Below are positions 49,601 through 52,600 of a stretch of 64,000 nucleotides of DNA, piece after piece (the first letter of the stretch is position 1; each line of letters starts with the position of its first letter). The DNA comes from Escherichia coli O127:H6 str. E2348/69. Lineage in GTDB: Bacteria; Pseudomonadota; Gammaproteobacteria; Enterobacterales; Enterobacteriaceae. The DNA lies in assembly GCF_000026545.1 (NCBI RefSeq), contig NC_011601.1; one strand, 5' to 3'. The position numbers were made by a program.

Positions 49601-52600
49601 GGGATGTGTGGAGCAACGGCATCAAAAAGTTTATGGCTGAAAAGGGGATCCAGCCGGACCTGATCTACACCTCGGAAGAAGCCGATGCGCCACAGTATAT
49701 GGAACATCTGGGGATCGAAACGGTGCTGGTCGATCCGAAACGCACCTTTATGAGTATCAGCGGTGCGCAGATCCGCGAAAACCCGTTCCGCTACTGGGAA
49801 TATATTCCCACCGAAGTGAAGCCGTTCTTTGTGCGTACCGTGGCGATCCTTGGCGGCGAGTCGAGCGGTAAATCCACCCTGGTAAACAAACTTGCTAATA
49901 TCTTCAACACTACCAGTGCATGGGAATATGGTCGCGATTATGTCTTTTCACACCTTGGCGGTGATGAGATCGCATTGCAGTATTCCGACTACGATAAAAT
50001 CGCGCTGGGACACGCTCAATACATTGATTTTGCAGTGAAATATGCCAATAAAGTGGCGTTTATCGACACTGATTTTGTCACTACCCAGGCGTTCTGCAAA
50101 AAGTACGAAGGGCGGGAGCATCCGTTCGTGCAGGCGCTGATCGATGAATACCGTTTCGATCTGGTGATCCTGCTGGAGAACAACACGCCGTGGGTGGCGG
50201 ATGGTTTACGCAGCCTCGGCAGTTCGGTGGATCGCAAAGAGTTCCAGAACTTGCTGGTGGAGATGCTGGAAGAGAACAATATCGAATTTGTGCGGGTTGA
50301 AGAAGACGATTATGACAGCCGTTTCCTGCGCTGCGTGGAGCTGGTGCGGGAGATGATGGGGGAGCAAAGATAATCATCTTTATAAGATGTTGAGTGGGAT
50401 TACTGATTCAAAAGTGTACTTAGTACTCCATTTTGGTGTACAATGTACCTGCCAGGGAGGGGTAATGGGTAAGGCGATAATATTTATAGAGACGCCAATG
50501 TTTACGCGTCAGATCAAGCAGATTGCAACCGATGATGAATTAAAGGAATTACAAAAAGAACTCATCGGAACTCCCGATAAAGGTGATCTCATTCAGCAGA
50601 CTGGTGGATTGCGTAAAGTCCGAATGGCTGCGGGTTCACAGGGAAAAAGTGGCAGTGTCAGAATAATTTACTTTCTGGCGACGGAAGAGATTATTTATTT
50701 GATTATGGCCTATCCGAAAAATGCCAAAGATAGTCTGACAGATACGGAAAAAGCTCAACTAAAGAAGTTGACGAAACTGCTCAAAGGCGAGATATAAAAT
50801 GAGTTTTTTTGATGAGTTGAAAACCTCTCTGGAAGAGGCTGTCGAGATTAAACAAGGTTTAAAAGAACCTGCACGGGTGACCCGCTACGAAATTGCGGAT
50901 GTTAAAGCTATTCGTGAGCAACTCAACGTTTCGCAAAGTGAGATGGCAAAAGCTCTGGGAACCAGTGTGGATACCATTAAAAGCTGGGAATCGAAGCGAA
51001 GAAATCCTACGGGATTGGCTGCAAAAGTACTTGCCACAATTAAAGAAAATCCTGCCTTTTTCCGGGAACTTGCCTCCCATTAATCATTTAACTATTACCG
51101 GATGCGATGCTGGCGCGCCGCATCCGGCATTTTACGCATTACTTCGCAATACGCTTGTACTTGATACGCTTCGGCTCCAGCGCGTCTGCGCCCAGCGTGC
51201 GTTTCTTGTACTCTTCGTACTCGGTAAAGTTACCTTCAAAGAACTCAACTTTACCTTCATCCTGGTAATCCAGAATGTGTGTGGCGATACGGTCGAGGAA
51301 CCAACGGTCGTGCGAGATAACCATCGCGCAGCCTGGGAACTCCAGCAGGGCGTTTTCCAGCGCACGCAGGGTTTCGATATCCAGGTCGTTGGTCGGTTCG
51401 TCGAGCAGCAGCATGTTGCCGCCAACCTGCAGCAGCTTCGCCAGATGCAGACGACCACGCTCACCACCGGAGAGTTCGCCAACGCGTTTACCCTGATCAA
51501 CCCCTTTAAAGTTAAAGCGGCCAACGTAGGCGCGGCTTGGCATCTCGGTGTTACCGATCTTCATGATATCCAGCCCGCCGGAAACTTCTTCCCAAACGGT
51601 TTTGCTGTTATCCATTGAGTCACGGAACTGATCGACAGATGCCAGTTTCACCGTTTCACCTAAAGTGATGGTGCCGCTGTCTGGCTGTTCCTGACCAGAG
51701 ATCATACGGAACAGGGTTGATTTACCCGCGCCGTTCGGACCGATGATCCCGACGATCGCCCCTTTCGGGATCGAGAAGCTCAGATCATCAATCAGCAGGC
51801 GATCGCCGTAAGATTTACGCAGGTTGCTGACTTCCAGCACTTTATCGCCCAGACGCGGTCCAGGCGGAATAAACAGTTCGTTGGTTTCGTTACGTTTCTG
51901 ATATTCGGTGCTGTTCAGCTCTTCAAAGCGCGCCAGACGTGCTTTACCTTTCGACTGACGGCCTTTAGTTCCCTGACGTACCCACTCCAGCTCTTTCTCG
52001 ATCGACTTACGACGCGCTGCTTCTTGTGAAGCTTCCTGCGCCAGACGCTGATCTTTCTGCTCTAGCCAGGAGGAGTAGTTACCTTCCCACGGAATACCTT
52101 CACCGCGGTCAAGTTCGAGGATCCAGCCTGCAACGTTATCGAGGAAGTAACGGTCGTGGGTAATCGCCACCACGGTACCCTCGAAGTCGTGCAGGAAGCG
52201 TTCCAGCCACGCTACGGATTCGGCATCCAGGTGGTTGGTCGGTTCGTCGAGCAGCAGCATGTCTGGTTTTTCCAGCAGCAGGCGGCACAACGCCACGCGA
52301 CGACGCTCACCACCGGAGAGGTTAGCGATTTTCGCGTCCCAGTCCGGCAGACGCAGCGCATCCGCCGCACGCTCCAGCTGAACGTTCAGGTTGTGACCGT
52401 CGTGAGCCTGAATGATCTCTTCCAGACGGCCTTGTTCAGCGGCCAGCTTGTCAAAATCGGCATCCGGATCGGCGTACAGCGCATACACTTCATCCAGGCG
52501 TTTCAGGGCGTTAACCACTTCAGAAACCGCTTCTTCAATGGACTCACGCACGGTGTGTTCCGGGTTCAGCTGCGGTTCCTGCGGCAGATAACCAATCTTG

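Follow-up and report, generated by a model that had tools for sequence, protein, structure and literature searches.

Closest described systems

The locus described here is a pair of genes between nadR and ettA in a 64-kb stretch of DNA (hereafter the window; 64,000 nucleotides, 100% identical to Escherichia coli E2348/69), and it is very likely a chromosomal type II toxin-antitoxin (TA) operon of the Vibrio cholerae HigBA2 type, repressing itself through palindromes upstream of the toxin gene. In V. cholerae, HigB2 inhibits growth by ribosome-dependent cleavage of mRNA and is neutralized by its antitoxin; mutation of HigB-2 residues R51, R64, Y82 and K84 cuts the activity 170- to 3000-fold, and the N-terminus of HigA2 is reported to fold into a helix and then a strand on binding the toxin (PMC5416850). 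HigA2 protects one repeat, TGTACGC-N5-GCGTACA, from after the -35 element across the -10 element (PMC11006873). A recent review treats PF06296 as the HigB-2 family, separate from the family of HigB-1 and Rts1 HigB.

HigBA of Yersinia ruckeri pYR4 is toxic in E. coli, is neutralized by its antitoxin and stabilizes the plasmid (PMC11429247). Its toxin is HigB-2-like (39% identical to HigB-2, about the same distance to the Vibrio proteins as the E. coli pair), but it is located on a large conjugative plasmid and is a more distant relative than the NadS-family pairs of Col-type plasmids. These last share with the window toxins of about 80% identity, an antitoxin annotated as nadS, the 1-nt gap between the genes and the same upstream palindrome; unlike the window pair they are carried by plasmids, most of them with only one palindrome, and the literature search found none characterized experimentally.

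E. coli MqsRA is also toxin-first, and the helix-turn-helix (HTH) of MqsA is similar to that of the window antitoxin, with a weak C-terminal likeness to Pfam MqsA_antitoxin (E 6e-4), a match to TIGR03830 in the HTH part only (E 1e-9, 38 bits against a cut-off of 61.8) and a template modelling (TM) score of 0.79 between folds. Its operator has the same compact 5-N3-5 form as here, the MqsA site being AACCT-N3-AGGTT. However, MqsA has an N-terminal zinc-binding CxxC domain, whereas the window antitoxin is without any cysteine, and MqsR is a different branch of the RelE superfamily. E. coli K-12 HigBA (YgjN/YgjM) and Salmonella SehAB share the name HigBA, the toxin-first order and the C-terminal HTH of the antitoxin, but their toxins are of the HigB-like PF05015 family and the antitoxins are much larger. 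SehAB was considered as the characterized relative and rejected, as it belongs to the K-12 HigBA (YgjNM) family and its antitoxin, SehB, has 142 aa.

Compared with V. cholerae HigBA2 (PDB 5JAA, 5JA8, 8A0X), the window pair has the same toxin-first order, a 110-aa PF06296 toxin of equal length (38% identity over 98 columns) with the same four catalytic residues, an antitoxin with an XRE-type HTH preceded by a predicted toxin-binding segment (modelled here as a helix and a strand), and an inverted repeat with TGTAC over the putative -10 region. It differs in its fixed chromosomal site, the V. cholerae module being located in the superintegron; in the antitoxin N-termini, which have no detectable sequence similarity; and in the operator, which is one 7-N5-7 repeat in V. 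cholerae and a compact GTGTAC-N3-GTACAC here, present twice in this strain.

The pair is an ordinary member of a well-studied kind and is already present in RefSeq and in the literature. RefSeq places it between nadR and ettA, with the toxin (WP_000513550.1) as "type II toxin-antitoxin system RelE/ParE family toxin" and the antitoxin (WP_000007436.1) as "nadS, NadS family protein". It appears as TA30 in a 2020 survey of adherent-invasive E. coli, in the ParE_toxin superfamily and under the name parE-3/yiaG-2, with genes of 333 and 285 nt lying 1 nt apart in the nadR-ettA spacer; CFT073 has the TA30 toxin gene too, and these TA genes are missing from K-12 and HS (PMC7232551). Added here are the precise family, the family-wide operator motif and the explanation of K-12 nadS as an antitoxin stump; the importance is small beyond correct bookkeeping.

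The toxin and the antitoxin

An earlier reading of the window from its sequence alone (the sequence-only reading) had described a HigB/Gp49-like toxin of 110 aa with the motif GKSGSVRIIYF, followed after 1 nt by a 94-aa protein with an XRE-type HTH. Both open reading frames (ORFs) are present in that toxin-first order, the motif being residues 60-70 and the single intergenic nucleotide base 50798. The gene start that it had set at 50387 had to be moved: the first ATG, at 50387, opens a 136-aa ORF whose spurious N-terminal extension includes the palindromes, and the start of the 110-aa protein is the RefSeq ATG at 50465, where all homologues align.

The profile search that the same reading had proposed assigned the toxin to Pfam PF06296 "RelE" (E 5.9e-10). 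The match to Gp49 (PF05973) was marginal and far weaker (E 1.3e-3, 19.2 bits), and the HigB-like profile of Rts1 and K-12 HigB (PF05015) did not match the toxin in the Pfam results up to E 10. The homologues of the toxin carry a precomputed PF06296 assignment, some of them being annotated with both PF06296 and Gp49. In the PDB sequence search the sole real matches were the V. cholerae HigB-2 chains (E 7.7e-17). All four residues important for HigB-2 activity are kept, as R53, R66, Y83 and K85, of which R53, R66 and K85 are invariant in the family alignment and Y83 is conserved in at least 90%. The fold search with the AlphaFold model gave as top match HigB2 in the HigBA2 complex (5jaa_D; TM 0.85, root-mean-square deviation 2.0 A). 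Sequence and predicted fold together place the toxin in the HigB-2 family (PF06296), so that the earlier label holds as HigB in the V. cholerae HigB-2 sense and only marginally as Gp49. The appropriate name for the pair is HigBA2-type (PF06296/NadS), and not ParE or classical HigB.

Residues 14-96 of the toxin (50504-50752) also showed a weak likeness to the CRISPR ring nuclease Crn1 / SSO2081 and to CARF models in three independent libraries (NCBIfam E 0.004, PDB 0.14, PADLOC 0.0025). All these matches are far below the cut-offs and are probably noise.

The antitoxin matches NCBIfam NadS NF041265 over its whole length (residues 1-94 of 94; 182.6 bits, cut-off 60) and Pfam HTH_3, an XRE-type HTH, at E 6e-10. 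HigA-2 matches residues 33-91 (E 2e-6, 32% identity), and the modelled HTH superposes on the C-terminal domain of HigA2 with TM 0.81-0.84. The N-terminal part was examined in a toxin-linker-antitoxin fusion, for which the sequences of the two proteins were matched by locus. The fusion model has a helix at antitoxin residues 3-18 and a strand at 26-32, with a predicted local distance difference test (pLDDT) of 90-96; in the antitoxin modelled alone the same N-terminal residues have pLDDT 45-61 and the strand is missing. The prediction is that the N-terminal segment folds on binding, mirroring HigA2. The coupling of the genes is general: a scan of one genome per species yielded 80 related loci, mostly from Gammaproteobacteria and with toxins 66-82% identical, and in 79 of them a NadS-type gene comes directly after the toxin gene, with a 1-nt gap or a short overlap.

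Family membership with the predicted fold, the catalytic residues, the gene coupling and the family-wide palindrome described below are shown by the present analysis; toxicity, neutralization, DNA binding, the promoter position and any physiological role we infer. By homology, the toxin would be a small ribonuclease of RelE fold that enters the ribosomal A site and cuts mRNA under translation by means of an Arg/Arg/Tyr/Lys active site. The antitoxin, starting 1 nt past the toxin stop, would be translationally coupled to it; its first ~32 residues would be floppy when alone and would form the helix and the strand on the toxin, inactivating it. The C-terminal HTH would dimerize and bind the GTGTAC-N3-GTAC(AC) palindromes covering the -35 and -10 elements of the operon, and the pair would in this way repress its own transcription.

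Distribution and history of the module

The toxin gene was identified in 672 of 5426 complete E. coli genomes, as a single chromosomal copy, including 536, UM146 and E2348/69. In about 4290 further E. coli genomes the match is confined to ~140 nt surrounding the antitoxin gene start. The sequence-only reading had taken K-12 to have no TA pair at this place and considered the module probably accessory; the pair is indeed missing in K-12 and its presence is variable, as a result of loss. The K-12 deletion has removed the promoter, both palindromes and the toxin gene except its last ~27 nt. Of the antitoxin gene, 38 codons are left at the start, and a sequence of repetitive extragenic palindromic (REP) type replaces the HTH part, resulting in a 55-aa "NadS" whose first 22 residues are identical to the intact antitoxin and whose 17-aa tail comes from the REP-type sequence. 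In the K-12 derivative ET12567 the stump is located at 4031-4198 of L002, equivalent to 50770-50915 of the window.

Five stump-carrying strains have one common deletion junction, which indicates that the module predates the split of these lineages and was lost a single time. What sets the strains apart is an old deletion, carried by most E. coli, and not a recent insertion in E2348/69, and K-12 nadS is a decaying N-terminal stump of this antitoxin. A 2025 paper reports K-12 nadS as expressed and does not mention its stump origin (PMC12350097). Among the five strains the stump differs in the damage that came later, which is a change of ATG to ATA plus a frameshift, a change of ATG to TTG, or a 10-bp deletion; the damaged copies are pseudogenes in RefSeq. 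The lost start codon, the frameshift and the 10-bp deletion in other lineages weaken the case for selection maintaining the K-12 stump. Improbable is the proposal that the K-12 55-mer acts as a free toxin-neutralizing peptide, an anti-addiction device against the 80%-identical HigB-2-type toxins of Col plasmids; a separate part of the same improbable proposal is that the compact operator of the NadS family implies a DNA-binding geometry other than that of HigA2.

In the genomes where the module survives, the intact alleles differ by ~4% in nadR and ~2% in the toxin gene, mostly in synonymous positions (6 nucleotide changes and 1 amino acid change in the toxin), and are identical in the antitoxin gene and in both palindromes, which argues for selection on the module. 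These data bear on the possibility that the pair is an inactive leftover in E2348/69, with intact genes, a harmless toxin and an idle module. Most E. coli are without the toxin and their antitoxin gene is degrading, so the locus is clearly dispensable, and the literature search found no experiment showing activity; but an idle module accords poorly with this pattern of changes next to a nadR that is 4% different, with the intact catalytic residues and with a toxin gene that is full length in all 672 carriers (at least 97.6% nucleotide identity among the matches listed). A leftover is improbable, although it is the likeliest of the alternatives, and an operon of the HigBA2 type is preferred.

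Aligned with window positions 49965-51297 (1333 nt), BRG214 (L083) and ECONIH1 (L084) have 16-19 differences in 409 nt of nadR and 6-8 in the toxin gene, and match the window without a difference in the antitoxin gene (285 nt), the spacer that follows it and the end of ettA. Divergence thus falls abruptly, right at the toxin/antitoxin boundary, which could be a recombination breakpoint. E. coli O145 RM12522-C8 (L085) is rearranged: in place of ettA, a partial hypothetical gene and a DUF1471 gene come after nadR and the antitoxin stump.

Relatives with ~80% identity are found on Col-type MOBP mobilizable plasmids of 4-7 kb in many Enterobacterales, beside mobilization and replication genes. One example is Y. 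ruckeri pYR5 (L086; 5191 bp, module at 1764-2382), and many contigs of 4-7 kb are among L008-L036. Since these close relatives are carried by small mobilizable plasmids, the ancestral role was probably plasmid maintenance.

Upstream palindromes

The two 11-bp palindromes, 22 bp apart from start to start (Table 1), had been noticed in the sequence-only reading as plausible autoregulatory operators, and the comparative data strengthen that suggestion. They are the only two matches to GTAC-N3-GTAC in the window, where 0.23 are expected, and both carry the longer left arm GTGTAC. Among the 80 related loci, 71 have an exact GTAC-N3-GTAC at most 100 nt upstream of the toxin start, against 5 occurrences in the remaining 383 kb of these loci. 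The flanking DNA of the palindrome-carrying loci forms 48 unrelated groups, so the conservation does not come from shared ancestry of the whole spacer. The sites of the family give the consensus GGTGTAC-nAT-GTAC-a-C, corresponding to a palindrome of 15 bp, GTGTAC-N3-GTACAC, with TAT as the commonest spacer. In the antitoxin, the segment LGTS.DT.KSWE..RRNPTGLAAKVL aligns with the DNA-recognition helix of HigA2 and hardly varies among these loci. The comparison strongly supports the palindrome as a putative protein-binding site read by the antitoxin, and the two palindromes of the window are very probably the repressor-binding sites of the pair itself. GTGTAC-N3-GTACAC is a ready-made, testable candidate operator for a widespread group of plasmid and chromosomal TA modules that are seemingly uncharacterized.

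Only nine related loci (Serratia, Enterobacter, Buttiauxella and others) and the window have a further, distal site, located 19-22 bp upstream of the first. Where both sites are present, the distal left arm (TGTACA or TGTACT) and a TACnnT in the proximal site are spaced as -35 and -10 elements; in the candidate promoter of the window, TGTACT and TACAAT are separated by an 18-nt spacer. An operator thus appears to enclose each of the promoter elements. The 22-bp distance had been read as two helical turns: the spacing is real, but the pairing is restricted to a subgroup and 19-22 bp fits the -35/-10 geometry equally well.

That same geometry is one reason to consider the palindromes as mere promoter elements or a chance feature and not as protein-binding operators; others are the good -10 hexamer TACAAT held by the proximal palindrome and the TACTAT given by the commonest family spacer. 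A -10 element, however, leaves unexplained the invariance of GTAC on both sides and the symmetric flanks (G at -2 in 60 of 74 sites, C at +12 in 56 of 74), and several loci have better -35 and -10 candidates on either side of the site. The near-invariance of the aligned antitoxin stretch alongside the site, and the binding of HigA2 (a homologue) and MqsA (an HTH relative) to palindromes in their own promoters, also speak for operators. A non-operator origin is quite unlikely, somewhat more so than an inactive leftover.

Several points count against an autorepressed HigBA2-type operon and must be weighed with it. Conservation of the palindrome could in part reflect the -10 element that it contains. 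Since a consensus promoter scan called no promoter at the palindromes, the -35 match being 3/6, the promoter assignment is one that we infer. Compared with the V. cholerae operator (TGTACGC-N5-GCGTACA), the half-sites here (TGTAC-N3-GTACA) lie 6 bp nearer to each other, and three of the four base-reading residues differ (R68/E71/N72/R77 in HigA2, D58/K61/S62/R67 here), so the solved HigA2-DNA geometry is not simply transferable. A PDB search with the first 40 residues of the antitoxin alone gave no match to HigA2, so the proposed mode of toxin binding depends on the prediction for the fused construct, made from a shallow alignment of 31 rather similar sequences. Finally, the literature search found no experimental work on this E. 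coli pair, and a search with the RefSeq protein accessions and the NadS model number found nothing.

Two groups of related loci deviate from the consensus site. Four Rosenbergiella loci (L020, L023, L025, L045) and one of Tatumella (L042) have, ~30-35 nt upstream of the toxin start, a variant that is not an exact GTAC-N3-GTAC (GGGTAC-TAT-GTAACCC or GAGTAC-AAT-GTCACC). The right half-site is altered, and the antitoxin stretch matching the DNA-recognition helix of HigA2 is unaltered despite the variant site. The other group comprises four loci of Lelliottia and the Enterobacter cloacae group, which are without the GTAC palindrome and carry CTGT-N8-ACAG (e.g. CTGTATATAAATACAG) at 2388-2403 in L024, 2387-2402 in L027 and L032, and 2389-2404 in L037. 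This is the LexA-box pattern, located ~113 nt upstream of the toxin start and followed by two hairpin-forming repeats; these loci may be an SOS-controlled variant of the module.

Alternative identities of the two proteins

The published label parE-3, the ParE_toxin superfamily assignment (PMC7232551) and the combined RefSeq name RelE/ParE would suggest a ParE-type gyrase poison in place of an mRNA-cutting enzyme of the RelE/HigB-2 type. ParE and RelE share one fold, and ParE complexes were among the weak fold matches, but with only E 0.3-0.5 and TM 0.5-0.6, far below HigB2. In sequence and in fold alike, every best match is HigB-2 (E 8e-17; TM 0.85), the PDB sequence search with the toxin gave no match to ParE, the prototype of the assigned Pfam family is HigB-2, and the four RelE-like catalytic residues are all present. 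The Pfam, PDB and fold matches speak against ParE, as the Pfam results do against Rts1/K-12 HigB, and a gyrase poison is highly improbable.

Just as improbable is that NadS acts chiefly as an independent transcription factor on targets elsewhere (for example in NAD metabolism), the toxin being secondary, an idea to which the gene name, the position beside nadR and the regulation of other genes by some antitoxins such as MqsA lend some appeal, but the name appears to be positional, the literature search found no paper tying NadS to NAD, the gene comes directly after the toxin gene in 79 of the 80 loci, in many genera and often on small plasmids without NAD genes, and the palindrome motif is found nowhere else in the window.

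Layout of the locus and minor features

The features of the locus are listed in Table 1. The hairpin between the convergent antitoxin and ettA genes is a probable shared transcription stop or REP-like element.

Table 1. Position of the genes and sequence elements in the window
Feature	Position	Strand	Remarks
nadR	49120-50373	+	Upstream neighbor
nadR-toxin spacer	after nadR end 50373		91 bp
Distal palindrome GTACTTAGTAC	50416-50426		Extended GTGTAC-TTA-GTACTC 50414-50428; overlaps putative -35 TGTACT 50415-50420
Proximal palindrome GTACAATGTAC	50438-50448		Extended GTGTAC-AAT-GTACCT 50436-50450; contains putative -10 TACAAT 50439-50444
Shine-Dalgarno-like AGGGAGGGG	50454-50462	+	Read from sequence; ends 2 nt before toxin ATG
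Toxin gene, HigB-2 / Pfam PF06296 "RelE" family	50465-50797	+	110 aa; ATG 50465, TAA 50795-50797
Antitoxin gene, NadS family	50799-51083	+	94 aa; residues 1-32 predicted toxin-binding segment, 33-94 XRE-type HTH
GC-rich hairpin between convergent antitoxin and ettA genes	51098-51127	n/a	Minimum free energy -20.9 kcal/mol, z-score -3.2
ettA	51139-52806	-	Convergent downstream neighbor

The Rfam scan of 50300-51200 identified no RNA family, its sole match having E 0.97, and the PADLOC defence models gave no specific match, only generic HTH matches besides the weak CARF-like noise. PHROGs includes phage-borne relatives of both proteins, listed as of unknown function, which add no mechanism. The right arm of the hairpin and the sequence following it are also present in K-12, beside further REP-type repeats.

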